Source: Hormiphora californensis (Eukaryota; Animalia; Ctenophora). Taken from it: a DNA stretch of 64,000 bases. Positions 1-62,496 of the stretch are shown here, piece after piece. The DNA lies in assembly GCA_020137815.1 (NCBI GenBank), contig CM035357.1:4464001-4528000 (forward strand), written 5' to 3'. The stretch's first letter is position 1; each line of letters opens with the position of its first letter. The notes beneath the pieces were generated by a model. It was not told where the DNA came from. It was given only the letters and a program-made list of their open reading frames with translations, and did not search any database. Both the position numbers and the translations under genes were made by a program.

Positions 1-15836
<15,836 letters not shown>

Positions 15837-26166: not shown

Positions 26167-27786
26167 TATATCAATGTCTATAGTTTATACCTATTTGAAC
26201 ACGTTTTTGTTCACGCCCTTATTGCGTCCTTAGCAGCTTGTTAAGATTGTATAAATAGTATTCTAGAGCTAGTATATTTTAAATGAATATATCAAATCAT
26301 GCGTCTTCTATCTCTCTCTCCCTCCCCCTCTCCCTGATCCATTTTTTCTATTTCTGTGAAAAAAAAACACAATGAACTCGTTCACATCCCCCCATCACCC
26401 ATGATAGATGTTTTATTCAGTGTTAGTGTCAGTTACTGTTCACTGTTCACTACTCACTTTCTTTGCCCTTGTCAGTGACGGTTCAAGACTTCCTTTGTCT
26501 AGGTACACCTGTGTCGTCTAGTCAGCTGTAAAATTAGCTCTAATATTATACTCCAGTGTATATAGGTACAATATATCATGGGGAGGGGGCAACTGCCATG
26601 CTAGTTTGATTCTTGAGGAACTATATAATTCTAGATAACCACAGTCTACCTAAATTAGCTATGCAATACATGAATGCATATTATGCGGAACCCGGTCCAG
26701 GGTCCTCTAGTCTTCATACCCCCCTGCGTCCTTTGTCCATTTACACTATTCTCACTTCTCGACCTAATTTATTTCATCAATTGAATTGCTCGTTCTATTA
26801 TTAATATTTCTCCTATCTACTTTTTCTAGATCACTAGCTGGTATATATTACCTAATTGTACTGTTCATTGTTCATATATAATTATTGTTGAATGTTGTTC
26901 TCAGTTAAAGGCCACCTGAGACAGTCTGAACAAGGTCATTATCTATCATAATTTTCAGTGTACCCTTATTAGTCAAGCATTGTTCAGACTTTCTTCTGAT
27001 CAATGTAACTTGTCTTGTTCAGACAAGTTCCTTTCACTCCTAGTTGTCATTTCTAATTCACTGCTGACACTAGTCTTATTTTATCGGATTGGGCGACAAC
27101 TTCCAAAAACCCGACTTTATATGATCAGAGCCCCGCTCTACGCCGTTCTAGAATTATACCAAGAGCTGTCAATAGTGTCATTTTGTTAGACTATCATTAG
27201 AGAGTATTAGAGAGTATTGTTAGATTATCATAAGAGAGATCGCCTTGTGCTATACTACTATTTATCAGCTATTCTAGCACGACTCTTTTTATAGTGTCAT
27301 GTTATTACTGGCCTCTTCCAGGCTGGATGAGCGTGATTTTAGCACTATAATACCTTCCATGTCTTTCCTCTCTAACGCAAACTCTCCCATCCGCCAATCA
27401 CCTCCCCCTCTCTCTCTCTCCCAATTACATGTCTCTTACTACCAATCCTTGGTAGACCGGTGCACTACTGACCCCTCAATCCCTTGATATATATAAACGC
27501 TAACCATATCCCCTCAATCACTAGTTCTCGACAGTTCTCCCCAGTGCACTACTGACCCCCTCCCCCATCCCCATATTTATAAACCCTAACCCCCTCTCCC
27601 CCTCCCTAGCTATGAGCACCTCCTCTCCAGACAGCACAATGTCAGACCACATCATCATTGTCCCCTCCTCCCTCTCTAGTCTCTTCCTCCTTACTACTGA
27701 CCCCCTGCTAACCCCCTCTATCCCCCCTAGTTATGAGCACTCTGCACTACTGACCCCCTACTAACCCCCTTTATCCCTCCCTAGCT

Positions 27787-28907
27787 ATGAGCACCTCCTC
27801 TCCAGACAGCAGCACAATGTCAGACCACATCATCATGGTCCCCTCCTCCCTCTCATCTTCGCCCCTCTGGGACAGCTTGTTGGGCATCGCTCTAATCTGT
27901 TGTGCAGTCCTGGGTATTCCGGGGAATTTCCTGGCATCCCGGTATTTCATCTCCCGACATCGCCGGAACATTGGTAGTATCTTGTACATAACCATCAGCT
28001 ACACCGATCTATGCACATCATTCTCCCATCTCCCCATTGTCTTTTGTCTGTTTAACAACCGCAGACCGGTCTTCTTCGGTAGCCAGGGGTTGTGTGTCTT
28101 CTGGGCACTGTTCTTTAAGTATCTTCAGCGGTTTTCTATCTTCCTGGTCATGATATTGAGTGTGACACGGTGTCTGGCCATCACAATACCCTTTATAAAG
28201 CTCAACCGGCTGGCCCTGCTCGTATCCATTGGTTTCTACGCCGCACTTCTAATCACGGTAGACCTCTTCAAGCTTCGTCCAGATTCCTACAAATTCGTTT
28301 CCATTGGTCCATTTTGTACGGATAGTCCGCTGCAACAGGAAAGTGAGGACATCCCGGGGAACTACACCAGTTGGGTGACCATCACAAAGACGCTGACGAC
28401 GTTAGAGCTTGGAGTTCCTTCTGTCATCACATTCTTCAGCTTCGCAATTACCATCGCAAAGTTATCTCAGAATTGTAATAGCTTCATCCAGAAACAACGG
28501 AATAAAAGGGCTAGCGTTACCGCTGCGATCTTCACAGTGGTGTTTCTCCTGTGTAACCTGCCATTCTTCACCCTAATGGTACTGAACACGGTCACCAGAG
28601 CGGTAGGGGTACAAATATCCCGAGCCATTCTTCACATCACCGTTCATGGTGGAATACAGCTTCCTGGTCGCCAAGATAGTGCTAACTGTGCCTGAATGCA
28701 ACCATTAACCCGATAGTGTATTACCACCGTATCAGGGATTTCAGGAGGTGGATCTTGGAGGTGGCTGCTACGCATGCTCCTTTGGAGACGGGAGATGAGG
28801 AGGATGAGGATGAGGATGAGGAGAGGGATGAGAGGTGTGGACGAGGTCCTGATTGGATTCATCTCCAGGTGCTGAAACCTGAAACCTCTCCCAGCAGTGT
28901 CGTCTGA
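27787..28907 (+). CDS. Rhodopsin-class (family A) GPCR, single coding exon, with two apparent +1 frameshifts near 28610 and 28691 (pseudogene or homopolymer errors)
   Basis: TM1 GIPGN, TM2 SYTDL, TM3 LSVTRC (DRY-like), TM6 FLLCNLP. The shifted frames give YKYPEPFFTSPFMVEYSFLVAKIVLTV and then LNATINPIVYYHRIRDFR (NPxxY). Confidence 0.85.
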
Positions 28908-32976: not shown

Positions 32977-35349
32977 TATATTATATTAGTGCTGTAGTAA
33001 TATAATAGTTGTAACAGATAATGATTAATACAGTTAATAAATTAAGTAATGTAATAAGTTAATTAATTAATGTAATAAGTTAATAAGATAACAATAGTAA
33101 TAATGGTTAATTAAGCTATGTAATGTAGTAGAGAAAAGCTACATTACTAGGCTAAAGTAAAAATAGTGAAAAAGATTATTTTCACGGAATCACACGTAAT
33201 TCAAATTTTAAGACGAGTATTTAAGATAAGTAGAAAACTTAAGACTAATTTAGGACTAATTTAAGACTTAATTAAGACTAATTCAAGACTAATTTAAGAA
33301 TATTTAGAGACTAATTTATGACAATGAAGCTTGGATAACTAATTTACCTACTAAATAAAGTATAAACTTACGATAGCTGCTACGTTACGTCAATAGATTA
33401 TCATCAAATGTAGAATTCTCTAATATATGTGCTACTAGCATTCTGAACTTGCGTTTCACGTTTTTGTCTTGACAAAATATTAAGGGGATACGGTAGTTTA
33501 ATTCGTAGATGGCTAAAGAACTGAGCTCCTGTCTTAGAGCAGACACTGCCCCTGCAGATACACATTCAAATAGTTTGTGGTAAGATGAGTCGGGCAACAA
33601 CCCACACTCTAGGCATGTCGGAACGGACACCGTGCTGTCATGCTGCAGATACCGGAACGCAAAGTTCTGAAAACGTAGATTATGACCGTGAGTGAAGTCG
33701 ATAATCGCCGTAGATTCTCCTCTACTGAGAGCTCGATGGAGAAGAGGGGTGAGAACAACTTCCCTTGTGTTGACCAGTCTTCTCAAGTCCTCCACCGTGT
33801 GACTAGGTTCCAGCGTATATTCATCGGTTTTGAAAAGGTGTTCCATTTGTTGTTTGACGGTATCATCCCACAGTTTGTATCCGTAGTCGTCTATTTCTCC
33901 TTTGGTGTACAATAGCTGATCTCGCTCATAGTTTATCAAGTCACATCTTCTGAGAAAGCTCCTTCTTCTCGTAGCTGCCGGAACATTAGCATCTGTACTC
34001 TCCTGATCCTGGTCCTCCACCCATCGGAGATAGCATTTGGTCATGGTTAGATGATGTGCGAACTTATGGTACGGTTCCGAGTCAATTTGTAGAAGTTTGG
34101 CACTGATGCTATCCTCAGCTAGCAACCCTTTCAGCACAAATTTGATCGTCAGAATCCTCAAGGTGACTGCAAGAGGTGGTACTGTTGTGAGAAGGTCTCC
34201 TATCATGTTTGGGACATGAAACTGACTTCCCAGGATTTTCAGCTTGGCTCGAGCCATGAGGTCTTTAAAGCTTGATATCCGGTCTTCCAGCCAGAGAGGG
34301 GCCGCGTATAGTAGCTTCGTAAGCACCACTGTTTTGAAAAGTAAAGCCAACGAAGTACTATTCAGTCCATCCGTTCTAGTTGTGGATGTCGAGAGTCTAC
34401 TCCATGCAAACCAGCATTTCTTTAAGGTAAAGGACGCATGTTGTTGAAAGTTCAGGTCTTTGTCTAGGTAAACGCCCAAAACCTTGCTGGAATCTGCATA
34501 TAAAATTTCTTCATTGCCGAGGTAGAATTTTGGAAGTACTGTCGGTGGTTCTGATCTTTTAGGACGTACAACAAGGATTTCAGTCTTGTCTTTTCCACAG
34601 TTCACCACCAGCCGCCAAGTCCTACACCATTCGTGGATGTATTGTAGTACTCTTTGCATAGATGATTCACATTCTTTGTCTGTACCAGTGATAACTACAG
34701 TTCCATCGTCTGCAAATTTGAATGTTTCAGTGTGGTGACGAATATCAGTTGGTAAGTTTCAGTAGTCAGAAGATCTCCGATGTAAAGGATAAATAGGAGA
34801 GGCGAAAGTACTGCTCCTTGTGGTAATCCTGTGGTTCCACAGATTCTGGCTCGTCCCACCTTTCCGTTTATCTTCAAACTGACCAATCGGTTGCTAAGCA
34901 TAGAATGGAGTAACTTCAGGATTCTGCCATGTACTCCTAAGCGATGGATTTTGTAGATGAGGAGAGGAATCGGCACACTGTCAAAGGCCTTCTCGAAATC
35001 TATCAGCAAAAGATAGGCGGTTGCCTTTCTCCTACGGTTTTCATGTAGAGTTGCCAGCATTCGGTATAGATATCGAGTACAGCTCCGGTTTGGTAGAAAT
35101 CCTTCCTGTTCATCTTCGAGCAACGTTTCGCTATAGCAATGGTCCCTCATTCTTCGGTCTAACACCCTCTCAAAAAGTTTACCGATGTACATACTGATGG
35201 TGATAGGGCGGAAAGACCCCGGTTTGAGATATGAGCTCTTTCCTGCTTTCTTGATGAAGGAAACCGTTGATGCTCTCCAGGGCCATACTGAACACTTCAA
35301 ACACAAATCGAATAACTCGGCTAGAAAGTTTACTGCCCGACCTCCCATA
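32809..35349 (-). mobile_element. 5'-truncated non-LTR retrotransposon (APE-RT LINE type; clade not determined)
   Basis: 11-bp TSD TTAGAAAGAGA (32798-32808, 35350-35360), (TAA)n 3' tail, AT-rich 3' UTR, RT ORF. Confidence 0.9.
33385..35349 (-). pseudogene. LINE ORF2 reverse transcriptase plus C-terminal Cys/His region; frameshift near 34757
   Basis: FRPITI, QEGFLPNRS, IDFEKAFD, GLPQGAVLSPLLF; FADD lies in the next frame, followed by LGVYLDKDLNF and CLECG...HKLFEC. Confidence 0.9.
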
Positions 35350-36879
35350 TTAGAAAGAGAAAAACTGTATCTTTCTAATGCGACCAATGAAAAGTCTCTA
35401 TCTTATCAGGAACCGGATTTAGCACGCGCAAAAACTTTCCGCGCACTGTGATTTTAAATAACTGTCGTTTTTTAGAGGTTTCAAATTTCTTTAAATGACC
35501 ATAAGTCCGGTTCCTGATGAGATAGAGACTTGAAATTTGGAGGTTACGAAGATCTTGCTAAGTCCTTCCGAACCTCCAAATTTCAAGTCTCTATCTTATC
35601 AGGAATCGGAGATATGACAAATTTTGTTATTTCAGGGGTGTATGGCGGTGCATGAGTGCACGATGAAATTTTCTACAAAAACATGAAAAAAAGAAAAAAA
35701 ATGAAAAAGAAAAAAAGAACAATTTTTAAAAAATGAAAAATGTAACGCGCGAAGGGTGGTCTGGACCATATTGGTCAATAGCGCTGCCACATTAGCTTTT
35801 TCCCCGCGCGCATTCGTTTTTGAAATTGAAAATCGGCTCATTTTTTCACTTTTTTTGACGATTTTTTCACTTTTTGGCAAGTTCTCCCATTTTCTTCTCT
35901 TCTTTCGTCCAAAAAGTGGGTCCTGGACCCAAGGGACCCAGCCTTGCTTCGCCCCTGGTGCACTCATGCACCGCCATAGGGGTGCGACAGTTTCAAAAAA
36001 TCCGACTTTAAAGTCGGATTTTTTGAAACTGTCACCCCCCTTTTCGTGCGCGGAATGTTTTTGCGCGTCACATCACATGTTAACGTGTGGTGTGCGCGTC
36101 AAAATTGATAAATTTCACATGCGCGGTCATTTTGGGGTTGGCAAACGTTGCTGGCGCAACCTTATCCTGTTCTGCGCCACGCGCAGCGCGGGATAAGGCA
36201 GCGCTTTTCAAATTTTGGGGTGACAGTTTCAAAAAATCCGACTTTATGAAGTCGGATTTTTTGAAACTGTCACCCCCCTGAAATAACAAAATTTGCCATA
36301 TCTCCGGTTCCTGATAAGATAGAGACTTGAAATTTGGAGGTTCGGAAGAACTTAGCAAGATCTTCGTAACCTCCAAATTTCAAGTCTCTATCTCGTCAGG
36401 AACCGGATTTATGGTCATTTACGAAATTTGAAAATACCCAGGGGGGTGACAGTTTCAAAAAATCCGACTTTACTCGGATTTTTTGAAACTGTCACCCCCC
36501 TTAAATAAAAAAAATTTGTCATTTCTCCGGTTCCTGATAAGATAGAGACTTGAAATTTGGAGGTTCGCAAGAACTTAGCAAGATCTTCGTAACTTCCAAA
36601 TTTCAAGTCTCTATCTCATCAGGAACCGGACTTATGGTCATTTAAAGAAATTTGAAAACTCTAGGGGGGTGACAGTTTCAAAAAATCTTGGCAAACGTTG
36701 CTGGCCCCCGATAGGGGCCAGTAGTCTATCCCGCGCACCCTTGCCGAAAACCGCTTGTCAGAGCCCATTACTGACGGCGCGCGCAGAATTCATTTCACCA
36801 TTAGACCTATCCCGCGCGCTACACAAAGCATGTTCGTGAACTGAGACAGAGTCCCATTTTGTGACAATTACATAATAAT

Positions 36880-37710
36880 ATATGGGTAGATTATGTGGGT
36901 GTGGGGGAGCGGGGGTTGTATGGTAGAAGGGGAAAACTGTTTAGAATAAGGCTGACTTACTGCGAAAAGAAGCAGATGGATATGGAGCGGAGATGGTTCA
37001 GATAGAGAAACAGCCCTCACCGAGAGTGCCCCAGGGCTTTTCTTCACTTCAGTAATCAGTAATCGTGTCCACATGATGAATTCGAGTCACTGGAAGTTAC
37101 TTTTAGATTGATAAATACACCACCAATTCAGAGTATCAAACTTTCAGCTGTTCTATCGGAATCCTGGGAGAGGTAAAGAAGGGTTAGTACAAATGAGAGA
37201 GACTAAATTGATACTACACTTTACTCGGGGGAGTCTGCACTTTAGACTCCGAGGAAGATGAAGGAGAGGAAGATGAATGGGGATAGTAGATACGGACAAG
37301 TTATGGAGGAGAGGAATATTAAGGGGAGGATCAAGGGGAGGTTAAAGAGGAGTAGAGATAGAGAGGGGTATAATGAAGGAGGAAAGACCGTCCCTCTCTT
37401 TCTCTTGTTTGTGTGGGTAGATTATGAGGGTGGGGAGCCGGGAGGTTGTATGGCAAGAGGGGAGGATGTTTTGGAATTTCACTTACTTTAGCGAAAAGAG
37501 GCAGATTGATACGGAATGGAGATGGTTCAGATAGAGAGAGCCCTCACCGAGATTTCCCCAGGGCTTATTCTTCATTTATTTCAGTAATCAGTAATAGTAT
37601 CTACATGATCAATGATGCATCACCGGGAGTTCCTTTTAGATTGATGAATACACCATCAATTTACAGTGTCACATTTTCAGCCGTTCTATCTGATTCCTGG
37701 GGAAGAAGGG
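36880..37710. repeat. Diverged ~290-bp direct duplication (~36880-37175 and ~37413-37710)
   Basis: Shared anchors tgggtagattatg...gcgaaaag...gatggttcagatagaga...ccctcaccgag...ttcagtaatcagtaat...gttctatc...tcctggg. Confidence 0.7.
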
Positions 37711-38603
37711 TTTTTAAAAACAATAGAGACTTTGGACTCCAATTCACTTCGATCCATCAGATGGACATTCTTATGTAGCAGTGGAACCGTGAACCGTCAC
37801 GACATCCCTTGCAGTCAGCAGTTGCACCTCTGGGGACATCTCCCAAAGACGTCCCACCGCAAGAGACGAAATATACTGCCGGAAAAGTGACTCAGTGACA
37901 ACTCTGACACACTTTCTTGGCGTAGCATGACCTCCCGGTTGGTGCATCTGTCCTAAAACTCACCGTAGAACTTGATTAAGCTAAATATTAACGGATCGGA
38001 GCAATTGATCGGTCTTTGCCCTCATGAAGTACATAACACGGAAGGAAGTAAGTACTCTATTCAAATAAACTCATAACAATTTTCTTTGGGTCTCGGATGG
38101 GAGGTCTTTCCTTTTACGTTCTACATTCCTCTACTGTGCTACATTCCTATCATTACTACATTCCTATTTTGACTACATCCCCTATAACTACATCATCATC
38201 TGAAGTCCTTTCCTCCAACATATGAGTAGAGTAGGGGTCTGATATCATGTCAAGAGTGTCGAGTTTTTTGAGTATATTTTCTGGTTGTATTGTGACAGTG
38301 TGTGTTGAGTTTCTTTCCTTTCTGGCTAGAGTAGAGTCATAGGTTCTTTGAGCGAGCGAGTGAGCCAGCCTGAACAATGTTCAGTGAACATCACGGAGGG
38401 TATTACGTTCTCGAAGACATCAAGACGATAAACATACATGGACTTTATACGAGTGTGTTTGGAGAATAGACTCTAGAGTTTCTAAGTTGGGCAGCTCTTA
38501 ATTTTTATCTTCTCTATCCTAGTTACCTTAAAATTACTTTAAATTAGAACCTAAATACTTACGTCTAGTACAGTTATCTATCTTACAGCTTATTATAATT
38601 AGC

Positions 38604-39281
38604 TTAAAGTGAGAGTGGCGCGCCGTGTTTTCTCGCGGAACTTGGTGGGTGGGCGGGGGCTGCCGCCGGGGCCGTTGGTGCGGTGTCGGGGGTTTCCGAT
38701 TCTTTCTCGTTCATTGGTTGTGGCGTGGTATGTTCGTTGTTTGAACTTTTGTGGGATTGCTCTACGGAGGAGTCTGTGCGTTGTGGGTTGGGGTGGATGC
38801 TTGCGTCGTGTTCGGCGTCGGGGAGTGGTCGGGGTGCCGGGTTTTGGTGTCTCTGCCTTGTCTGTGGCGCGGGATGTCGGCGGTGGTCGGGGGCGACTGG
38901 AGTGGGAGAGGGAGAGTTTGTTATTTTTGGGTGGCGCGCACAAACAACTAGCACCCGAAAATGGCAAGCTCTCTTTCTCCCGTTTTGGTCGTTTTTGATT
39001 GTTGTCGGTGTCTCGCGTCGCGGATAGGGTGGAGGCGCCGGAATTTGGTGCACCGGCTATTTTTTGGCGCTGGGCGCGGTGCGGGCGTCCATTTCGATCC
39101 GCAGGGCGCGGATTTTTCTGGGGAGCGGTTTTGTAGGGGTTTGAATAGTGAGCGTATTGCGTCGTGACTGGTGGGCGGGACGGAGTTGGGGATTTTCGGT
39201 GCCGTGCCGGTGGTCCTGGTGGTACTCCCCGTTCATCCGCTGACTTTTGTGGGAGAGCACGGCGCGCCACTCTTACTTTAA
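38604..39281 (+). other. TTAA-flanked foldback element forming a 330-bp G.U-rich hairpin on the + strand only (candidate long hairpin RNA)
   Basis: Position i pairs with 77885-i from 38604 to 38933; loop 38934-38951. Termini TTAA|AGTGAGAGTGG are shared with the MITE at 61017. Confidence 0.85.
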
Positions 39282-40030
39282 ATTTTAAACCCAACCGCAT
39301 TAATTAACTTATTCTGACTGGCCATTGCACTGGCCTCCTGCCTTTTTATTTTTTACCGCTCCAATTAATTAATTTATTAACAGCTTTGTATTTAACCTAT
39401 CTGACTGACCTCTGGTCTCTTGCTTTTTATTTTTCTACCTCGTTATTCGTTAATTTATTACCAGCTTCTTTAGAATTTTCCATAGGCCATTTATTAGATC
39501 ATAACCTTATATAGCAATTAATATGGTTAGTGTGTATTACCTTATCGGTTATCCTGTTACAGTTACTTTATCCATTAACTAATTACTTAGCTATTCGCCT
39601 CCTTTTTAGATCACTAGCCTTTTACTTGAATTAATTATTAAACTATACTACTTACTTAGTATTTACACTATGTACTTATTAATCAACAGTTAATTATCTA
39701 ACTAGTTATTATCTAACTAGTTAATTATCAATTATCTAACTAGTTAATTTCTCAATTATCTAACTACTTAATCACTCATCGAATTAATTACGCTATTTCT
39801 TAATTAGATATTTTATAACCCTTATTTTCTACATACATTTATATATATTATATCGAATGACTGCCGACGGTTTTTTAAGGCCTTTAGGATCTTATAATCC
39901 TATAAGAGCCGCTTTAGAAGGCTTGTTAGTGGTGGGTGCGTTGCTTCAATCGACTGATTGAAACGGCGTCCTCCTAGCACTAACAATGCATAGGCCCAAA
40001 AGCGGGATATAAATTATAATTGTATTTGTA

Positions 40031-41300
40031 CTGTGTGATTTTAAATGACTGAGACTGGTATATTGCGAATTGCGTGAAAACTATGGCATCTTTCGACTTC
40101 AAATTTTGGGACATGATAAAACTAGGTTGTAGCAATTTTCTCCTAGTTTTACAGCAAATTTCAATGTTCCTGAATGAATCTATTGCCCAAAAACCTCCTC
40201 CAACTTTACACAGTCATATCTCTGGAGTCTAATGAGATAGAGAGTTCACATTTTTAGGAGAGACAGATAAGACGATTTCGAATGTTTTGTCTGCTTTACG
40301 AGTTGCTACATTTTACCATTTGTTCACAGGAACTGTTTAAAGTGATGTAACACGCTCTAATTAGGCCAAATTTAGGTCATTTTACCCCTCAAAGATCACA
40401 TTTCCAGCTGCATCTAGTGGGCTAATGAGGCCTTGAACACGCATACGTCACGTGTTACTGTAGAGCTACAGCTCTCCTTTTCCATCTTGAACCAGCAGAC
40501 ATGATCATGGTGTCTGGAAGTGGTAACAAGCTGTAGAAAACCAGACAGACTAGATGCTCTCTACTTCAACGTATCACTCTCTCCCTTTCTCGTTATAAGG
40601 TCACGTGACTGGAATTGGGATCTCGACATGATCACAATGTCTACAAAGCGTTCTCTCTCTCACACACACACACACACACTCTCTCTCTCTCTCTCTCTCC
40701 CATGTCGAGATCCCAATTCCAGTCACGTGACCTTATAACGAGAAAGGGAGAGAGTGATACGTTGAAGTAGAGAGCATCTAGTCTGTCTGGTTTTCTACAG
40801 CTTGTTACCACTTCCAGACACCATGATCATGTCTGCTGGTTCAAGATGGAAAAGGAGAGCTGTAGCTCTACAGTAACACGTGACGTATGCGTGTTCAAGG
40901 CCTCATTAGCCCACTAGATGCAGCTGGAAATGTGATCTTTGAGGGGTAAAATGACCTAAATTTGGCCTAATTAGAGCGTGTTACATCACTTTAAACAGTT
41001 CCTGTGAACAAATGGTAAAATGTAGCAACTCGTAAAGCAGACAAAACATTCGAAATCGTCTTATCTGTCTCTCCTAAAAATGTGAACTCTCTATCTCATT
41101 AGACTCCAGAGATATGACTGTGTAAAGTTGGAGGAGGTTTTTGGGCAATAGATTCATTCAGGAACATTGAAATTTGCTGTAAAACTAGGAGAAAATTGCT
41201 ACAACCTAGTTTTATCATGTCCCAAAATTTGAAGTCGAAAGATGCCATAGTTTTCACGCAATTCGCAATATACCAGTCTCAGTCATTTAAAATCACACAG
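40031..41300. mobile_element. 1.27-kb foldback MITE with 600-bp apparently identical arms
   Basis: TA|CTGTGTGATTTTAAATG ... CATTTAAAATCACACAG|TA; arms 40031-40630 and 40701-41300; the spacer holds CT/CA microsatellite. Confidence 0.9.
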
Positions 41301-42148
41301 TATTTGTATTTGGTTTTCGCTAACTGAGAGTCGGCCATATTGGATTTGGGTCGAACCAGTGGAAATCGAATGATATTTTTTCCAGAATCGTTTGAAATTG
41401 GTGCGCGGCTCACTTTAACACATGCGCGTTAGCAATATTAAATAGTGTGCGCGGCTCAACATTTGCGCGTGCAAAAGTGATCGATTTCCAACATTGAAAA
41501 GAGAGTCATCAAATTCATGTCAAATGCTACCAATTCCCAAAATTTGGTGATTGTACGACTTCCGGAACATGGTCAAAATGACTTGGGACAGGATCCTGTA
41601 CATGCGCGGTGTTCCCTCCTTATCCCTGTTCTGCGCCACGCGCAGCGCGGGATAAGGCAGCGCTTTTCAACAAAAAATCCGACTTTAACTCTCGCACAAA
41701 AAAATCTCGCACAAAAACAATCCTCGCACACAATTTTTGGGTGATATGAACCATTCACGTCAAACGCGTTGTAGCGCGCGGAAGAACCTTCTTTATACTC
41801 TGCCGTGCGTCACAGGTGCGCGCAGCTCAGTGGGTGTCTTATTTTTTGTTATTATTTCGCAAGAAGAAAATCAAAACCTTTTTGCAAAATTTAGTTTTCC
41901 CAGTTTCAGTTTTCACTAGCTCACTCGCCAAGGACAAAGGTGCTCTCTGTGCTCTTTTCAAAGAAGCGGGTTTCAACATAGTATCACATCCACAGTCTAA
42001 ATCCCTAGCAGTGGTGCTTCGTCTTTGACCCCTCCCAACTGAAGGAGCGAAAAGCTCTGCTGGCCACCTTGAAACGGGTTCGAACAGATGATCCAGGCGC
42101 TAAATATTACATCAGAAACAATGTGATCCAAGTCGGATAGCGAACTGG

Positions 42149-43685: not shown

Positions 43686-45625
43686 TTACCCGACTGCAGC
43701 ATATATGAGTGGTATTGTTTTTCTAGGCAGGAGGGAGTCACCTGCTTATAGATTATAAACTTACTCAGTTGTCGGCATTGCATGTCTTCTACGTTGCTAC
43801 TCCAAGCTCTATCACCTTGACAGGTATTTGTAGCATCACCGTCCAGTACATGATTGGGCTTACAAGTGATAGAAATGCTGGTTCCTGTTGGTGAAGCAGC
43901 CCAGGTTCCTTGCGTAGATCCCTCAACAGTGAAGCCAGGACATCCTGAAAAATGTAGCGTTACTAGTCACTAACTGGAAATATACTATTCGGGGAATTAT
44001 ACTTCTTTGAAGCTGAAAGATATAATCATACCCGGCGGTGATCTATAGAAGTCAGAAGCTGTGTCTTCACTGTTAAAACTTATCGAATCCACAATATCAC
44101 CACCCCACTTTTTACTACAAGCCCCACCCCATGCAGTAATGTGTGCGAACACCAACTTGAGCACCTCAACATCATTACATGAGATGGTGAGGGCGGTCTC
44201 CATTTTGGCAATCGTCCATATCTTCTCAACTCCTGCTTCGGGCTGTATTGGCAGATTGCTTGTAGCGCAATTGAATATCCCATACTTATACTTATTACTT
44301 TCGAAGTACAATTTCACCCTCCCACCCATGTTCACCCAGATCATATAATCTCCACTGCTTGGTTGAGAGTTCGTCTTTATCTGCAGAGGTGTTGTCTCCA
44401 GGTCCCAAGGAATTGTTACACCACGCTCTACAGCTGTCCATTCTGAAATGCAATTTATTATACTCAGTTTTATTCAAAAAACTTAAAACTCCTGAATCCT
44501 GATAAATCGAAAAAATACAATTATATTTTCAACCGAAAAATACTGGGTTTGACCGGGAATTGAACCAGGGATCTCCAGAGAGACATGCTCGGAGCTATAA
44601 ACCACTAAGCTACCAAACCCTATGTACTGATCGCATTTCATCGCTCTATATTCAAGCTCCTGCCCTTAGCTAGACACCATGTGATAAAGGGAAGTAATTT
44701 TGATATCTCCTTCTGGTGATCAACACACACACACACACGCCATCTGTACAACAGTTTAATGGGGAATCTCACACATACATATACACGGGCAGAACTCGGT
44801 TAAGGAGAGATTAATTAGTATTCTGAATAATGAGTTCAGAGCAAGAATTAAATAGGGAAGAAAATCGAAAAATACTGGGTTTGACCGGGAATTGAACCAG
44901 GGATCTCCAGAGAGACATGCTCGGAGCTATAAACCACTAAGCTACCAAACCCTATGTACTGATCGCATTTCATCGCTCTATATTCAAGCTCCTGCCCTTA
45001 GCTAGACACCATGTGATAAAGGGAAGTAATTTTGATATCTCCTTCTGGTGATCAACACACACACATACACGGGCAGAACTCGGTTAAGGAGAGATGAATT
45101 AGTATTCTGAATAATGAGTTCAGAGCAAGAATTAAATAGGGAAGAAAATCGAAAAATACTGGGTTTGACCGGGAATTGAACCAGGGATCTCCAGAGAGAC
45201 ATGCTCGGAGCTATAAACCACTAAGCTACCAAACCCTATGTGCCCTACGTAAACCAGTGTCAGGGTTAGTTCTACTGCCCTGGCCCTGTGAGGTAAGGGC
45301 GGCACATAAATAGACATATTATCTCTATTATAATCTCTATTATAATTTCTATTATAATTTTCAAGAAATGGTGCTCCATAGCTTACATATTACCGATCAG
45401 CATATAAAAGATATCTCATTGCGAAGAAATAATGTTATAAAGAAATTGAGAAGACCCAGGCCTTATTCGACACCCTGTCTCACCGCACATGATTGTAATA
45501 TTCTGCTGCCCTCTACTATTTTATGTATACACCTATTACTAACCTGTTGTTGTAGCCGTGGAGGATAAGACACACGCCGTCAGAACAACAACTGATGTGA
45601 TATGCATCCCTCCAAAGACTGACAT
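43686..45625 (-). CDS. Secreted protein: signal peptide, ctenophore-type repeated domain, Sushi/CCP domain; exons 45625-45544, 44442-44032, 43944-43765; last exon uncertain
   Basis: Spliced MSVFGGMHITSVVVLTACVLSSTATTT-EWTAVERGVTIPWDLETTPLQIKTNS...KIWTIAKMETALTISCNDVEVL...KWGGDIVDSISFNSEDTASDFYRSPP-GCPGFTVEGS...ITCKPNHVLDGDATNTCQGDRAWSSNVEDMQC. GT-AG ends and phases are consistent. The first domain resembles one I recall as abundant in ctenophore proteomes (not verified by search). Confidence 0.75.
44545..45236 (-). mobile_element. Three tandem tRNA-derived SINE heads (44545-44620, 44877-44952, 45161-45236) in ~0.3-kb units
   Basis: Minus strand GGGTTTGG-TAGCTTAGTGG (A box)...GGTTCAATTCC (B box)-CGGTCAAACCC. 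Acceptor stem GGGTTTG/CAAACCC but a poor anticodon arm, so a SINE or pseudo-tRNA. Confidence 0.75.
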
Positions 45626-48405: not shown

Positions 48406-51400
48406 ATGTTTAACATGGCGTCCACTTTCCTTACCCTCTCCCTTCTGTTCACAGGTATAGAGGCTACAACAAAACGATGTGCTGTCGCACCGTACCATTG
48501 TTGCCATGGTGACGAAAGGGGGTTTACAGGATAATGAGGTGATGATAATCACCGTGGTGCGACACCGCGGTGATTATCATCACCTCATTATCCTGTAAAA
48601 CCCCTTTCGTCACCATGGCAACAATGGTACGGTGCGACAGCACATCGTTTTGTTGTAGCCTCTATAATTAGCGGTACGTATACATAATTAGTAACTAATC
48701 ATTAGTAGAGTTGTAAGCCCGGAAAACTACCTAGCATATTGTAGCAACTATAACTTTTCACTTCACTCGATTTTAAATCCCCTAAGTCAGACTTATTATA
48801 TTTATCTCCTCCTGTAAATTAAACTACCCCCAGCCCCGTAAATTAAACTACCCCCAGCCCCCTAAATTAAACTACCCCCAGCCCCCTAAATTAAACTACC
48901 CCCCAGCCCCCTAAATTAAACTACCCCCCAGCCCCCTAAATTAAACTACCCCCCCCCCCCCCAGTCCAAAACTCCCTCTCTCCCACTCTCTATCTCTCAC
49001 ACACACTCTCGTTTGTATGCTGCATTTAGAAAAACAAAAGAAATGCTCTAGACAAGGATCAATATTATGCACCGGGAAGAAAACGATATTAGCAGAGACC
49101 TCTATGGATTTAGAGAGCTACCAACTCCCATACTAGTCTAAAAATCCGAGCACACGTGCTAAAAGTTTTAGCCTAAAACGTTCATCTGGGCAGGGAAAAT
49201 ATAAAGTTGTTCAAGTTGTATAATATAAATTTAATAATGCTCGATCGTTGAGCTTGAGTTGACCCTCTCCCTTTATCTTTATCTCTCTTTTTTCTCTATA
49301 GTCTCTCCATATCTCTCACTCCGTGACTAGCCATCTCTGACGTGTTGGTGCTTAAGGAATGCTTTAATAATTCTTTGCCTTGGATTATCTCTCCATTCTT
49401 TTATGTGTCTCTTACTCAAGCATCGGCGTGCCAAAGCTAATGGCTTAATGTTTTTCATAATGGTTATATCGATCTGAGGCAAAGAAGAGTTAGATGGATA
49501 GAGAGGGAGAGATAGAGAGAGACATCTTTCTAACTACTATCTGTCTATCAGTCTGTCTGTCTTTATGTCTGTCTTTCTGTCTGCCTGTCTATCTGTCCGT
49601 CTGACTGCTCGTGGCAATAATTATTAACTCTGTGCCTGCTATTGCTAAATTATTCATATCCAACAATCGAATAGCAATGATTATCGGGGGGGGGGGGGTG
49701 CCCCAGGGTAGTTTAACATTTGTTTTAGTGACCATCTCCAATTCTGAATTCCGGTTGTAACTGTTGGGGAAGACCTTCCTGAAGGTCGTGGCGGAGTGGG
49801 AATAATCATGTAGACCTAGTACTAGAAGGTTTGAGGGGTCTATGGGGTATCTAATGTGGTGCCACTTTTCACTTCCCATAAATCAGACTTATTATATTTA
49901 TCTCCTCCCGTAAATTAAACTACCCTCCCCTTAATTAAACTACCTCCCCCCCCCCCCCCCCTTGAAGGAGTTAGCTGTGTGGACTATTTAGTGAACAGGA
50001 AAGGCAATGTCACCTACTACTCATCTGGTACCTCACATTTTGTCTCCGGGAATGTAACCTACTTCACCGACGCCCAACAACCATCATTTTACTATACCAA
50101 GGTACCAGGAACCGACCGACATAAGTAAACAACCAATCAGAACTCGTTATTTAGGTCACGTGACTGGTTATCAGCCAATCAGGGACCAGTATTTTACTAT
50201 ATCAAGGTACTTTTTGCCTTGCTCGATCGACCCTCTTTCCGTGCGCTCCACAAATGTAAAGAAGGGTTAGAACATAAAAAAGTTACATAATAAGTTTTTC
50301 AAATTACTGCTTCTTTGTTTGCTTCCCTCAAAGATCGTGTACAAATTATACTACAAAAAAAGTACATAGTACAATTACTTTTTTTCACCTTTTGTTAATG
50401 AAATGTTTACCAATTTCCAATTGACTAACAATGTGTTTTATATCAGGTAGAGGAAACAGGATATTCAATCTATCAGTACAACCTTACCAGCCACAACCAC
50501 CTTCTTATTACAACAGGTTAGTGACTCGACCCCCTCTCCGGTTAGCGGTTACCTTGCTCGACCCTTTCTTGGAGAACAAGTTAGCGGTTACAATAGTGGA
50601 CTGGTTTTGGGTGGTTTGGTAGTCAAGTGGTTTGATGTTGGGTGGGTAGGGTGAAACTCCCGACTGCTGTTTCGGATGAGTTTCAGTTCCGGTACATGAT
50701 GTGTGACCTCACTCTTCGCAGTTCGCCCCCATCTCCCTCCCCATCTCCCCATCTCCCTAGGTCTAGAAGATGTAAGCGGGATGGTTATCACTACTGATAC
50801 AGTGTACCTCCCCTTTACTTCTCTCCCTAGGTTTAGAGGATGTTAGTGGGATGGTTTCACTACTGATACAATGTACCTCCCCTTTACTTCTCTCCCTAGG
50901 TCTAGAGGATGTTAGTGGGATGGTAGTCACTACTGATACAATGTACCTCCCCTTTACTTCTCTCCCTAGGTCTAGAGGATGTTAGTGGGATGGTAGTCAC
51001 TACTGATACAGTGTACCTCCCCTTTACTTCTCTCCCTAGGTCTAGAGGATGTTAGTGGGATGGTAGTCACTACTGATATAGTGTACCTCCCCTTTACTTC
51101 TCTCCCTAGGTCTAGAGGATGTTAGTGGGATGGTAGTCACTACTGACACAGTGTACCTCCCCTTTACTTCTCTCCCTAGGTCTAGAGGATGTTAGCGGGA
51201 TGGTAGTCACTACTGATACAGTGTACCTCCCCTTTACTTCTCTCCCTAGGTCTAGAGGATGTTAGTGGGATGGTTATCACTACTGACACAGTGTACCTCC
51301 CCTTTACTTCTCTCCCTAGGTCTAGAGGATGTTACCGGGATGGTAGTCACTACTGATACAATGTACCTCCCCTTTACTTCTCTCCCTAGGTCTAGAGGAT

Positions 51401-54400
51401 GTTAGCGGGATGGTAGTCACTACTGACACAGTGTACCTCCCCTTTACTTCTCTCCCTAGGTTTAGGGGATGTTATCGGGATGGTTGTCACTACTGATACA
51501 GTGTACCTCCCCTTTACTTCTCTCCCTAGGTCTAGAGGATGTTAGTGGGATGGTTATCACTACTGATACAGTGTACCTCCCCTTTACTTCTCTCCCTAGG
51601 TCTAGAGGATGTTAGTGGGATGGTAGTCACTACTGATACAATGTACCTCCCCTTTACTTCTCTCCCTAGGTCTAGAGGATGTTAGTGGGATGGTAGTCAC
51701 TACTGATACAGTGTACCTCCCCTTTACTTCTCTCCCTAGGTCTAGAGGATGTTAGTGGGATGGTTATCACTACTGATACAGTGTACCTCCCCTTTACTTC
51801 TCTCCCTAGGTTTAGAGGATGTTAGTGGGATGGTAGTCACTACTGATACAATGTACCTCCCCTTTACTTCTCTCCCTAGGTCTAGAGGATGTTAGCGGGA
51901 TGGTTATCACTACTGATACAATGTACCTCCCCTTTACTTCTCTCCCTAGGTCTAGAGGATGTTAGCGGGATGGTTATCACTACTGATACAGTGTACCTCC
52001 CCTTTACTTCTCTCCCTAGGTCTAGAGGATGTTAGTGGGATGGTAGTCACTACTGATACAATGTACCTCCCCTTTACTTCTCTCCCTAGGTCTAGAGGAT
52101 GTTAGCGGGATGGTAGTCACTACTGATACAATGTACCTCCCCTTTACTTCTCTCCCTAGGTCTAGAGGATGTTAGTGGGATGGTAGTCACTACTGATACA
52201 GTGTACCTCCCCTTTACTTCTCTCCCTAGGTCTAGAGGATGTTAGCGGGATGGTAGTCACTACTGATACAGTGTACCTCCCCTTTACTTCTCTCCCTAGG
52301 TCTAGAGGATGTTAGTGGGATGGTAGTCACTACTGATACAGTGTACCTCCCCTTTACTTCTCTCCCTAGGTCTAGAGGATGTTAGTGGGATGGTAGTCAC
52401 TACTGATACAGTGTACCTCCCCTTTACTTCTCTCCCTAGGTCTAGAGGATGTTAGCGGGATGGTAGTCACTACTGATACAGTGTACCTCCCCTTTACTTC
52501 TCTCCCTAGGTCTAGAGGATGTTAGCGGGATGGTAGTCACTACTGATACAGTGTACCTCCCCTTTACTTCTCTCCCTAGGTCTAGAGGATGTTAGTGGGA
52601 TGGTAGTCACTACTGATACAGTGTACCTCCCCTTTACTTCTCTCCCTAGGTCTAGAGGATGTTAGTGGGATGGTAGTCACTACTGATACAGTGTACCTCC
52701 CCTTTACTTCTCTCCCTAGGTCTAGAGGATGTTAGTGGGATGGTAGTCACTACTGATACAGTGTACCTCCCCTTTACTTCTCTCCCTAGGTCTAGAGGAT
52801 GTTAGCTGGGATGGTAGTCACTACTGATACAGTGTACCTCCCCTTTACTTCTCTCCCTAGGTCTAGAGGATGTTAGCGGGATGGTAGTCACTACTGATAC
52901 AGTGTACCTCCCCTTTACTTCTCTCCCTAGGTCTAGAGGATGTTAGCGGGATGGTAGTCACTACTGATACAGTGTACCTCCCCTTTACTTCTCTCCCTAG
53001 GTCTAGAGGATGTTAGTGGGATGGTAGTCACTACTGATACAGTGTACCTCCCCTTTACTTCTCTCCCTAGGTCTAGAGGATGTTAGTGGGATGGTAGTCA
53101 CTACTGATACAGTGTACCTCCCCTTTACTTCTCTCCCTAGGTCTAGAGGATGTTAGTGGGATGGTAGTCACTACTGATACAGTGTACCTCCCCTTTACTT
53201 CTCTCCCTAGGTCTAGAGGATGTTAGTGGGATGGTAGTCACTACTGATACAGTGTACCTCCCCTTTACTTCTCTCCCTAGGTCTAGAGGATGTTAGCGGG
53301 ATGGTAGTCACTACTGATACAGTGTACCTCCCCTTTACTTCTCTCCCTAGGTCTAGAGGATGTTAGTGGGATGGTAGTCACTACTGATACAAGTGTACCT
53401 CCCCTTTACTTCTCTCCCTAGGTCTAGAGGATGTTAGCGGGATGGTAGTCACTACTGATACAAGTGTACCTCCCCTTTACTTCTCTCCCTAGGTCTAGAG
53501 GATGTTAGCGGGATGGTAGTCACTACTGATACAGTGTACCTCCCCTTTACTTCTCTCCCTAGGTCTAGAGGATGTTAGCGGGATGGTAGTCACTACTGAT
53601 ACAGTGTACCTCCCCTTTACTTCTCTCCCTAGGTCTAGAGGATGTTAGTGGGATGGTAGTCACTACTGATACAGTGTACCTCCCCTTTACTTCTCTCCCT
53701 AGGTCTAGAGGATGTTAGTGGGATGGTAGTCACTACTGATACAGTGTACCTCCCCTTTACTTCTCTCCCTAGGTCTAGAGGATGTTAGTGGGATGGTAGT
53801 CACTACTGATACAGTGTACCTCCCCTTTACTTCTCTCCCTAGGTCTAGAGGATGTTAGTGGGATGGTAGTCACTACTGATACAGTGTACCTCCCCTTTAC
53901 TTCTCTCCCTAGGTCTAGAGGATGTTAGCGGGATGGTAGTCACTACTGATACAGTGTACCTCCCCTTTACTTCTCTCCCTAGGTCTAGAGGATGTTAGCG
54001 GGATGGTAGTCACTACTGATACAGTGTACCTCCCCTTTACTTCTCTCCCTAGGTCTAGAGGATGTTAGTGGGATGGTAGTCACTACTGATACAGTGTACC
54101 TCCCCTTTACTTCTCTCCCTAGGTCTAGAGGATGTTAGCGGGATGGTAGTCACTACTGATACAGTGTACCTCCCCTTTACTTCTCTCCCTAGGTCTAGAG
54201 GATGTTAGCGGGATGGTAGTCACTACTGATACAGTGTACCTCCACTTTACTTCTCTCCCTAGGTCTAGAGGATGTTAGCGGGATGGTAGTCACTACTGAT
54301 ACAGTTTACCTCCTTGAGGATGATCGACTGGTAGCTGTTTCAATATCAAACAAACGACGCCTCACCCTCGCCCTGCTTGGTGCGCCCAGCCGTGCTCTTG

Positions 54401-60742: not shown

Positions 60743-62496
60743 CACGATATTCAAAATGTTGTTGTTGTTACCCTAGGTTGCTGTACTACAGCCAAAGTTC
60801 ACACCCTGTGACAATGTACAATGTGACTGATGGGAGAATGGAGGAGTTACAGACGGGTTATAAAATGTGGTCCACGACACTTGCAATCAGAGATAATGTA
60901 AGTTTTAGGTGAACATGTCTAGAAACTCTTTGATTGGATGGCCATTGGCCACCTTTGATTTATCAATTACTGGAGTCAATTATCAAGAGTCTAAAATGGA
61001 AAACTAGTGTTTTTAAAGTGAGAGTGGACAGAAAGCTATGATCCTGAGAGTAATGGAGGTTATAAGGGACGGCAACCTGAGTAGAATGCTGTTTTGGGCA
61101 TCTCCAACCGACCACAGCTGCCTGAGTTATATTTGGTACTTGCGCCCACGCGACGCAACGTAGGGCGCCAATAAATTTCACATTAACCTGCGCGGCGTCA
61201 AAAAGCCGCACAAAAATGCAAATTAGCTACAAAAAGTTCTAAAATTTTATTTTGAAATTTTTTTTTCGAGTTTTTAGCTGCGTCGCGTGGGCGCAAGTAC
61301 CGAATATAACTCAGGCAGCTGTGATCGGTTGGAGATGCCCAAAACAGCATTCTACTCAGGTTGCCGTCCCTTACAACCTCCATTACTATCAGGATCATAG
61401 CTTTCTGTCCACTCTCACTTTAACACTGTGAATTATACTGTAACTGTAAATTCCAAGTTCTACTGCGATTATGTAACTGTAAATTATACATTTGACACAC
61501 AATCTCGAGTTTATCATCATCACATTTTCAGATATTATACATGTATGACGGGCTATCTTTGGTTCGATTCAACCAGAAATCCCGAGAGGCTATCCTAGAA
61601 AGAGACGTGGGGTCATGGGGAAACATTCATCTTAGTCCTCTACTTGTTCTTTCTATCGCATCGGTAAGTGTAAAACTTTGTTGAGTACCGACCCCTTACT
61701 CAACAAGTCAAACACAGTGGTAAATCTAGTCCGAGATTGTTGATATCTTATTGGCTGGATCTATCACTGAGTCTGCTATTGGGTTATGGGTTATGATGAG
61801 CGGACAACTGCTTTGGTCAGTGTTAATTTCTCTAAAAAGTACTAAAATTCTGGATATATATTCATCAACAAAACCTCATTTAAACCTCAGATCAGAACCT
61901 CCGAGGAGTCTATTGTGGTTTCCCATATCAACACAACGATAGATATCCTTCCTGGACCTGTAGATACCGTTGCTATGGTTACCATGGATGCACAGCAACG
62001 GTGTGATTGGTGTGAGAATCGGTGTGATACTGGGTGTGATGTGTGTTATGGGGGATTGTGTGGTTGTGTCCTGGGACCAGGGAGAAAGAAGGAGGAGAGA
62101 CAATGTGCTAACGGTTAGTTTTGGACCCTTTTGTTTTCTTCAAATGAGAGATGGTGTCCCAATGCAACCTCTCATCCCCTCTGTGCAACCAAATGTGCAA
62201 CCAAATATAGTTTTCAAGATTACAAATAAGCTTTAGGAATACAACGCACTCAGTTTGACCATATTATTGCAGGGAACATCTGCAATATCCAGTATCAATA
62301 TCTAAGAAGTTCTCTTTTCAGACTCCACTGATTACCTAATCTACGGTGAAATGGGTGCTGTGACACTACTGCCTAGTTACCGTGGTAACCATGGTAACCA
62401 TGGTTACCCTTCAACTCTGGCCCAAGGGAATGGAAACTCTCACCTTCTGTCCACTAGATTGTTCAATAATACTGTCTTTTGGCTGGAAATAATAGA
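48406..62496 (+). CDS. Secreted or receptor protein with beta-propeller-EGF-like-propeller architecture (LRP/YWTD-like); exons 48406-48454, 49968-50101, 50447-50516, 54263-54416, 60777-60897, 61532-61663, 61891-62113, 62322-62496; continues beyond
   Basis: Eight GT-AG exons join without a stop: MFNMASTFLTLSLLFTGVSCVDYLV...GLEDVSGMVVTTDTVYLLE...PSRALVMDSQGLLYYSQ...STTLAIRDNILYMYD...CDWCENRCDTGCDVCYGGLCGCVLGPG...QCAN-DSTDYLIY. The family assignment is inferred from blade-like motifs. Confidence 0.75.
48456..48666. mobile_element. 211-bp near-perfect palindromic MITE starting at intron position +2
   Basis: TATAGAGGCTACAACAAAACG ... CGTTTTGTTGTAGCCTCTATA; centre near 48561. Confidence 0.85.
48815..48962. 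repeat. ~23-bp minisatellite taaattaaactacccccagcccc (x6)
   Basis: Seen directly; its upstream flank recurs at 49883-49950. Confidence 0.85.
50752..54312 (+). repeat. 70-bp tandem satellite (~51 copies); unit = 3' splice site plus the first ~50 nt of the downstream exon
   Basis: Unit cctttacttctctccctAG|GTCTAGAGGATGTTAGTGGGATGGTAGTCACTACTGATACAGTGTACCTCC. The last copy runs into the exon GLEDVSGMVVTTDTVYLLEDD. Confidence 0.95.
55077..55281. repeat. Two ~100-bp structured direct repeats
   Basis: gctaccaccgactctcggc...gccgag.tcgg...gtagcccaacagggaga.actac.ctaacc.gtagc occurs twice. Confidence 0.75.
56113..56155 (-). ncRNA. Mirror copy of the hammerhead ribozyme
   Basis: taggaaagtactttcgtagataaagtctacatcatcagtccta is the reverse complement of 60348-60390. 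Confidence 0.85.
56456..57839 (-). pseudogene. Inverted partial copy of the PLE ORF (from YPSIRKE to the stop)
   Basis: Protein matches the + copy except HTDALD versus HRDAMD. Confidence 0.9.
57840..60047 (+). CDS. Penelope-like RT + GIY-YIG endonuclease, open but 5'-truncated
   Basis: KADKG, LDVEALYPSI, GIPTG, RFIDD, FLDV, YRKPTD, Cys-rich linker CGGRGCKTC, VIYVAQCSIC...YVGQT...RINGH. Confidence 0.93.
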   Translation: MRFDAREFLRKLEWRTFFHQLGTEHTTEHQAHPDLRIPSRRSPEDFHNTVVEDVKRRLLTFVDSLAPRRPRCNLGYLELEGKKWIAQQIQNQIIFITKADKGGATLILDYPTALDSVRSNLANPNKFRESDLAVSDKMVQVGALVRSLVLEEEGVGHISQKDKTLITGLNKNNHLKTSPVLRPEIPFTYPLFKLHKLSEEQIRDRVTPPIRLVHATRNGPLYRLEKWVSPFLTELSQEYVGEEYILDTDDLLVQLQGIGIQTGTRSLFTLDVEALYPSIRKELALQALDHALMTHRRGSVIGLAVRRFVEVILEESFITFGDTVYTSVEGIPTGNCISRQLADIFLHWLLFVECQNLIPPEAYIWRRFIDDVFGIWRGTERQLTTFIARLNRATKSYGINFGDQQFGDSVNFLDVTVSLEEGNLEHKLYRKPTDARMYLRTESFHPRHVFKSVIFSQMLRVIKRNSRESTRVQDLEELRVDLLKSGHLERDLDNLQPKALERLQLEQELPPTQQNPTTQLIFATNYFEGVDDLRNFLRNLEEDIRAVAGDVKVVLALRKLKSIGNTVVRNRKLSESNMEVETQEEEGEFNQKCGGRGCKTCPLMSPSPCLSVNGKRLKLNPHLNCKSKNVIYVAQCSICTRAQGNRKEDTYVGQTMQPFHKRINGHRAKFSELEHQGSALAQHCWEKHRDAMDLNIFKLGLVKQVSAVGLDRAESKLIDNYRTKLFGLNRILVVR
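60348..60390 (+). ncRNA. Minimal type-I hammerhead ribozyme in the PLE 3' region
   Basis: Stem I TAGGA/TCCTA, core CTGATGA, stem II GTAGA-cttta-TCTAC, GAAA, short palindromic stem III AGTACT, predicted cleavage after CUU. Confidence 0.85.
61017..61419. mobile_element. TTAA-flanked foldback MITE (Kolobok-like termini)
   Basis: TTAA|AGTGAGAGTGGACAGAAAGC ... GCTTTCTGTCCACTCTCACT|TTAA; ~140-bp near-perfect arms. Confidence 0.85.

Follow-up and report, generated by a model that had tools for sequence, protein, structure and literature searches.

A densely A-to-G-converted palindromic MITE in the ctenophore Hormiphora californensis, likely written by ADAR

We analyzed a stretch of 64,000 nucleotides from the genome of Hormiphora californensis (GenBank assembly GCA_020137815.1, contig CM035357.1, positions 4,464,001 to 4,528,000, forward strand), referred to here as the window. 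Its coding content includes exons of a HECT ubiquitin ligase that by eye resembles HUWE1 (14080-15836) and, at 27754-28695, a one-exon ctenophore receptor gene of the rhodopsin family, whose nearest named relatives, at 51-52%, are those of Bolinopsis and Mnemiopsis. Repeats are varied. A LINE remnant occupies the minus strand at 33385-35402, with a reverse transcriptase domain (RVT_1 in 34698-35402) and an AT-rich tail; three tRNA-Thr(TGT) copies stand in tandem at 44544-45236 on the minus strand, either as a tRNA array or as SINE heads; and a 70-bp satellite runs for about 51 copies at 97% over 50752-54313. The segment at 56068-60435 is by eye a Penelope-like element, with an 822-aa open frame (57579-60047) that has no Pfam hit and inverted arms of 1772 bp. 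A minimal hammerhead-like core lies in this element at 60353 on the plus strand and at 56150 on the minus strand. Long perfect palindromes are common in the window, as in the foldback at 40029-41302, whose 602-bp arms have zero mismatches and whose flanks carry a direct repeat of 9-10 bp.

One palindrome differs from these others in its pairing. Its two arms (Table 1) form 330 pairs with zero gaps, every pair of positions summing to 77885, and each of the neighbouring 20 registers contains 143-170 non-pairs; the single-register hairpin and its 18-nt loop thus stand as a sequence-only reading of this DNA had described them. Across all 330 pairs we count 186 Watson-Crick pairs, 138 G.T pairs, 0 A.C mismatches and 6 others, so that A.C is not, as it might have been in a full tally, as common as G.T. 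The G.T pairs are split between the arms, 73 having G on the left and T on the right and 65 the reverse. The same reading had held that the plus strand would be almost fully paired and the minus strand not, which folding confirms: as RNA the plus strand forms a single rod at -494 kcal/mol (z -37) and the minus strand reaches -182, and as DNA the values are -134 and -75. Ten other foldbacks of the window, said earlier to show few or mixed mismatches, indeed hold 21 G.T and 21 A.C in 4317 pairs when pooled, with no strand bias, and a window-wide scan found no second G.T- or A.C-tolerant stem of this kind. The absence of A.C was considered as a mark of edited mismatches and was not used, its p value relative to the other foldbacks being 0.08. 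No Rfam family scores at the gathering threshold at the hairpin.

Table 1. Parts of the converted element, its host repeat and a sister element (positions in the window)
Feature	Position	Strand	Remark
Host repeat, left part, multi-copy, class unassigned	38300..38603 (nominal start)		Depth about 31x that of the element contigs (run X1), a rough guide only
Left TTAA target site	38604..38607		From sequence; element-free host copies retain the sequence to this point
Left arm	38604..38933	+	73/98 inferred stem A now G
Palindromic non-coding MITE, AG...CT ends	38608..39277	+	138/202 stem adenines read G
Loop, 18 nt	38934..38951	+	Keeps 7 A (present-day count)
Right arm	38952..39281	+	65/104 inferred stem A now G
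Right TTAA	39278..39281		Junction without 11-14 host letters present in element-free copies
Host repeat, right part, AT-rich	39282..39600 (nominal end)		X1 contig, 1 substitution in 252 letters
Unedited sister MITE	61013..61423		TTAA and first 11 letters common; interior different

Judged by its sequence, the hairpin belongs to a multi-copy family of palindromic, Kolobok-type MITEs with TTAA flanks, and this copy lies inside a second repeat. TTAA stands on both flanks, the ends have the form 5'-RR/YY-3' (AG...CT) with terminal inverted repeats, and 23 of the first 24 pairs are Watson-Crick. In all four sequencing runs compared below, many contigs at both ends of the element run into unlike sequence beyond 38604 and 39281, which indicates a family with many copies and supports the MITE origin first proposed from the palindrome and its termini. 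Kolobok non-autonomous elements have a TTAA target, RR...YY ends and inverted repeats (PMC9587614), and the present element shares these traits and the high copy number with them and with the T2-MITEs of Xenopus (PMC9587614, PMC6004289). It departs from the T2-MITEs in its end motif, AGTRA here against AGGRR there (PMC6004289), and no transposase partner is seen for it here. A host list given for such elements does not include ctenophores, and the accounts given of them in these two reports do not mention one-strand A-to-G change (PMC9587614, PMC6004289). The sequence-only reading had equated the termini with those of a MITE near 61017-61419. The likeness holds for a 15-nt end and stops there, and this neighbor was rejected as the parent. 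No parent copy of the converted MITE occurs in the window, and its end motif gave 0 and 0 hits in two scans of metagenome contigs and 0 in viral contigs.

The surrounding repeat has changed little. Against X1 contigs its left flank differs by one substitution and one gap over 294 letters, and its right flank is similarly close (Table 1). Element-free copies of this host repeat occur in both organisms sampled, and they carry 11-14 extra letters at the insertion site. As the last 8 letters of the element are identical to the host letters at the junction, these 11-14 letters were likely lost by a short deletion between 8-bp repeats. A flanking target duplication of at least 8 bp was sought round the host repeat and none was found in the zones searched, the ends of the host being nominal; a hammerhead core was likewise sought in the repeat, and the search gave nothing. 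Its likeness to the tails of the Penelope-like and LINE elements of the window does not rise above shuffles (best 2/60). A 74-aa frame in it matched no protein family, the one match being an unnamed 32-aa piece, and the 32 of 685 pieces listed do not include an unedited donor that shares the host junctions. Immediately to the left lies a 77% direct repeat (36883-37204 and 37414-37731). On the other side, close to where the host repeat probably ends, 170 nt at 39850-40020 are structured (fold z -4.5 on the plus strand, -3.8 on the minus strand) and have no Rfam family; a twister-like reading of them was dropped, as Rfam gave no support.

Dissecting the direction of the changes requires relatives, as a G.T pair may descend either from A-T, through A>G, or from G-C, through C>T, and the sequence-only reading had supposed both. 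Polarization by other copies, which that reading had proposed, was carried out on contigs from four runs (X1, X5, X10 and X14), all presumed DNA, out of 22 listed. Among the places that differ, flanks included, the window has G where the relative has A at 14/18 in X1, 14/19 in X5, 19/66 in X10 and 34/91 in X14; the corresponding counts for T in the window and C in the relative are 0, 1, 5 and 5. The contigs compared are at least 80% alike, which biases them toward less changed parts, and as there are equal numbers of wobble G and wobble T, this filter favors neither kind of change. Place by place, the relatives carry A at 37/37 distinct wobble-G places (14 loose contig ends, by eye) and C at 2/16 wobble-T places, namely 39025 and 39241, the latter in one of two runs; some wobbles may thus be C>T. 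Of the 24 loose ends listed, this tally uses 14, compared with both back-conversions, and 82 further loose ends fall outside it. Of the 10 excluded, 7 lie at the ends of the element or in its flanks, 1 aligns only when shifted, 1 is too short and 1 is presumably adapter-like. Base composition points the same way: resetting all wobbles to A-T gives a GC content of 38.8% and resetting them to G-C gives 79.5%, in a window of about 44%. Back-conversion to G-C was rejected on these two grounds. The wobbles thus appear to be nearly all A>G on the plus strand, which indicates as parent a near-perfect, AT-rich palindrome, and the supposition of C>T alongside A>G is not borne out.

The extent of the conversion is considerable. 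About 68% of the stem adenines (138/202) now read G, and other change amounts to about 1%, with 6 mismatches in 660 stem bases and flanks that are less than 1% off the main contigs of the host. A difference of this order argues for a burst rather than drift.

The distribution of the changes has much in common with ADAR hyper-editing. They are dense and on one strand only, and they are confined to the duplex: A>G outside it is listed at one place (39449) in about 620 flank bases, and the ends of the stem are spared, with 2/11 adenines changed in the outer 25 pairs and 6/17 in the inner 25, compared with 130/173 in the middle (p 0.0002 and p 0.001, respectively). Change in both arms on one strand, with the flanks unchanged, points to a folded plus strand as the substrate. 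Published data show that ADAR disfavors a 5' G in all metazoans examined and has repeats as its main targets (PMC9989829; coral data, PMC5850803), and that Mnemiopsis possesses both ADAR1 and ADAR2 (PMC9989829). In the hairpin, with the outer 25 pairs omitted, adenines after a 5' G are changed at 23/40 and the others at 113/150 (p 0.03), and across four trims this test gives p values of 0.06, 0.03, 0.05 and 0.11. A 3' G has no clear effect (20/25 versus 116/165, p 0.48). Adenines in TAG, CAG and AAG are changed at 16/16, in a triplet test that was picked after the data had been viewed, and a 5' A, favored in published ADAR data (PMC9989829), is not favored here (48/71 changed). Sequence context agrees with ADAR, short of proof, the signal being weak and trim-dependent. 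The spared ends could alternatively result from selection for transposase binding.

A second copy, partly converted, is present in the reads of another organism (X14). A contig of 330 letters, at depth 22, follows 39008-39281 with 45 differences and ceases matching at TTAA, which places it at a different genomic site. Within 39096-39178, on the assumption that its differences there are all listed, it has G at 11/23 places changed in the window and at 3/11 unchanged (p 0.29), and it keeps T at 16/17 wobble-T places. The Watson-Crick pair is restored at 12/23 wobble-G places and at 0/16 wobble-T places (p 0.0004), and at 39171 it has G where other contigs have A. We read this copy as the product of its own, lighter conversion, or else as sharing a first round with the copy in the window.

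We consider it probable that a fold-back transcript of the MITE was hyper-edited by ADAR and that a reverse transcriptase then wrote the RNA into germline DNA, the G.U pairing being a by-product. The palindrome would have been transcribed on the plus strand and its transcript would have folded back as double-stranded RNA, in which ADAR would have turned about 68% of the paired adenines into inosine. A reverse transcriptase would read inosine as G, and the cDNA would enter germline DNA. Because an edited A-U pair becomes G.U after copying, a near-perfect G.U stem would follow without selection; the editing would erase the DNA palindrome and the RNA stem would survive it, the back-converted form of the plus-strand RNA folding at -578 kcal/mol compared with -494 now. 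A source of reverse transcriptase is near at hand, in the RVT_1 domain of the LINE remnant and perhaps in the 822-aa frame of the Penelope-like element. The route back into DNA is the least certain part of this explanation. Most likely, the MITE travelled within a host-repeat transcript that was retro-copied, or else its cDNA replaced the sequence at the source locus. Among the causes put forward in the sequence-only reading, deaminase editing fixed through reverse transcription thus gains support from the one-way A>G against relatives. A bolder version, which we regard as doubtful, is that the MITE family moves also by way of RNA, a hairpin cDNA with unedited ends being inserted at TTAA by a Kolobok transposase, repeatedly and in two ctenophore species. 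Such a route would fit the sparing of the ends, the TTAA at each side and the lack of edits in the flanks, as well as the partly converted X14 copy, whose match ends at its TTAA at another site.

Deamination of the DNA itself, without reverse transcription, is an unlikely source of the pattern. It could occur through ADAR acting in an RNA:DNA hybrid with a transcript of the family, or through another deaminase acting on an extruded hairpin, and either would be equally expected to leave A>G on one strand. The position of the element between two TTAA sites and a host repeat that shows no retro-copy hallmark in the searches made are also in keeping with it. Deoxyinosine in DNA gets repaired, however, and the ten other foldbacks of the window, some of them longer and perfect, are without strand bias. 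ADAR does edit the DNA strand of hybrids, but fully matched hybrids were edited at less than 5% in vitro (PMC7955049), compared with 68% here.

Gradual change, driven by selection that favors a long RNA duplex rich in G.U pairs (as a hairpin RNA or small-RNA precursor) or by hairpin repair that tolerates G.T, had also been put forward as a cause, and we judge it very improbable. The stable fold of the plus strand is what it would produce, as are the lack of indels and of A.C, the last of these not significant relative to other foldbacks, as noted above. C>T would then be expected too, at 122 G-C pairs, and the relatives show almost only A>G. Both selection and repair would retain C>T equally readily, so this near-exclusive A>G removes the ground for either. 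Furthermore, the background of about 1%, the single-copy depth of interior contigs and the element-free host copies in both organisms leave no time for 138 separate fixations.

About as improbable is an artefact of library or assembly, in which the assembly would have picked up an edited RNA or an error in base calling. The runs that hold the element whole (X1-X4) are from one sample, DNA by guess and possibly the source of the assembly of the window, and at the right junction the contig extends 26 letters into the flank, below the minimum of 31 of the tool. On the other hand, two short-read contigs of X1 (38563-38954 and 38928-39307) match the window letter for letter, at an even depth of 24 and 26, and reach 41 letters into the flank at the left junction. 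The four runs of this sample contain 0.78-0.85 of the words of 38000-39900, and the DNA of another organism has the separate, partly converted copy described above. The locus thus stands up in reads, as far as these go: since X1 may be the source of the assembly, its contigs exclude base-calling error better than they demonstrate inheritance. In X5, from another study of the same organism, contigs indicate presence only, and the gaps in coverage at 38652-38739 and 39092-39135 are not read as absence. Six RNA runs, whose contigs are strandless, contain 0.05-0.37 of the words of 38000-39900, probably from the flanks, and were left out of account.

Deamination that occurs spontaneously on a single strand exposed for long, as happens on the heavy strand of mitochondrial DNA, would account for strand-specific transitions and is hardly credible here, as such exposure yields C>T above A>G and acts mostly on unpaired parts, whereas C>T is nearly absent from the hairpin and the loop keeps 7 of its 18 letters as A.

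Hyper-editing of RNA followed by reverse transcription is a known kind of event, and the earlier statement that no described class has this signature does not hold in that respect; what appears to be new is that A>G marks of such unusual density, which ADAR likely made, are preserved in a DNA transposon. Hairpin RNAs of Drosophila, which are precursors of endo-siRNAs, likewise have a long G.U-rich RNA stem, and they come from transcribed, selected loci; here the wobbles are one-way and apparently from a burst. The closest precedent is that of human L1 in cultured cells, where 3/235 pseudogene insertions had clustered edits, only in inverted Alus (PMC11702581). It has in common with the MITE the clustered, one-way A>G in an inverted-repeat duplex, found in DNA after reverse transcription. 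The L1 case is somatic and experimental, with Alu pairs in mRNA and a known carrier (PMC11702581), whereas the MITE is a DNA-transposon palindrome in animal genomic DNA, with 68% conversion and a carrier that is a candidate. The avian retroviruses RAV-1 and avian leukosis virus are A-to-G hyper-edited, and there too the marks of ADAR pass through reverse transcription (PMC8586724). They are viral genomes that bring their own reverse transcriptase; the MITE is a non-coding class II element. APOBEC-edited LTR retrotransposons also record a deaminase burst fixed in a genomic repeat copy, with G>A on the sense strand, made on cDNA, in vertebrates, in contrast to A>G in a ctenophore (PMC4866542). 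In the genome-wide screen for such editing, DNA transposons served as negative controls, and so did invertebrates (PMC4866542). In the literature searched, mostly open-access main texts, a germline ADAR-edited DNA transposon was not found.

If the proposed history is true, RNA edits, which are normally temporary, have turned into inherited mutations in an animal of an early-branching lineage, and a transposon of the cut-and-paste kind has passed through RNA. The marks would testify to transcription of the palindrome, and to its double-stranded form, in the germline, and, should the MITE family indeed transpose by way of RNA, they would show the path of a DNA transposon through an RNA stage. 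Repeat maskers and screens for G>A editing would overlook such copies. The signature itself, gap-free arms with G.T only and no A.C, is easily searched, and as it needs no parent copy, the rate at which edits pass from RNA to DNA would become countable across genomes. Because editing of this kind removes the DNA palindrome and leaves the RNA stem in place, new loci for hairpin RNAs may also readily arise by it.
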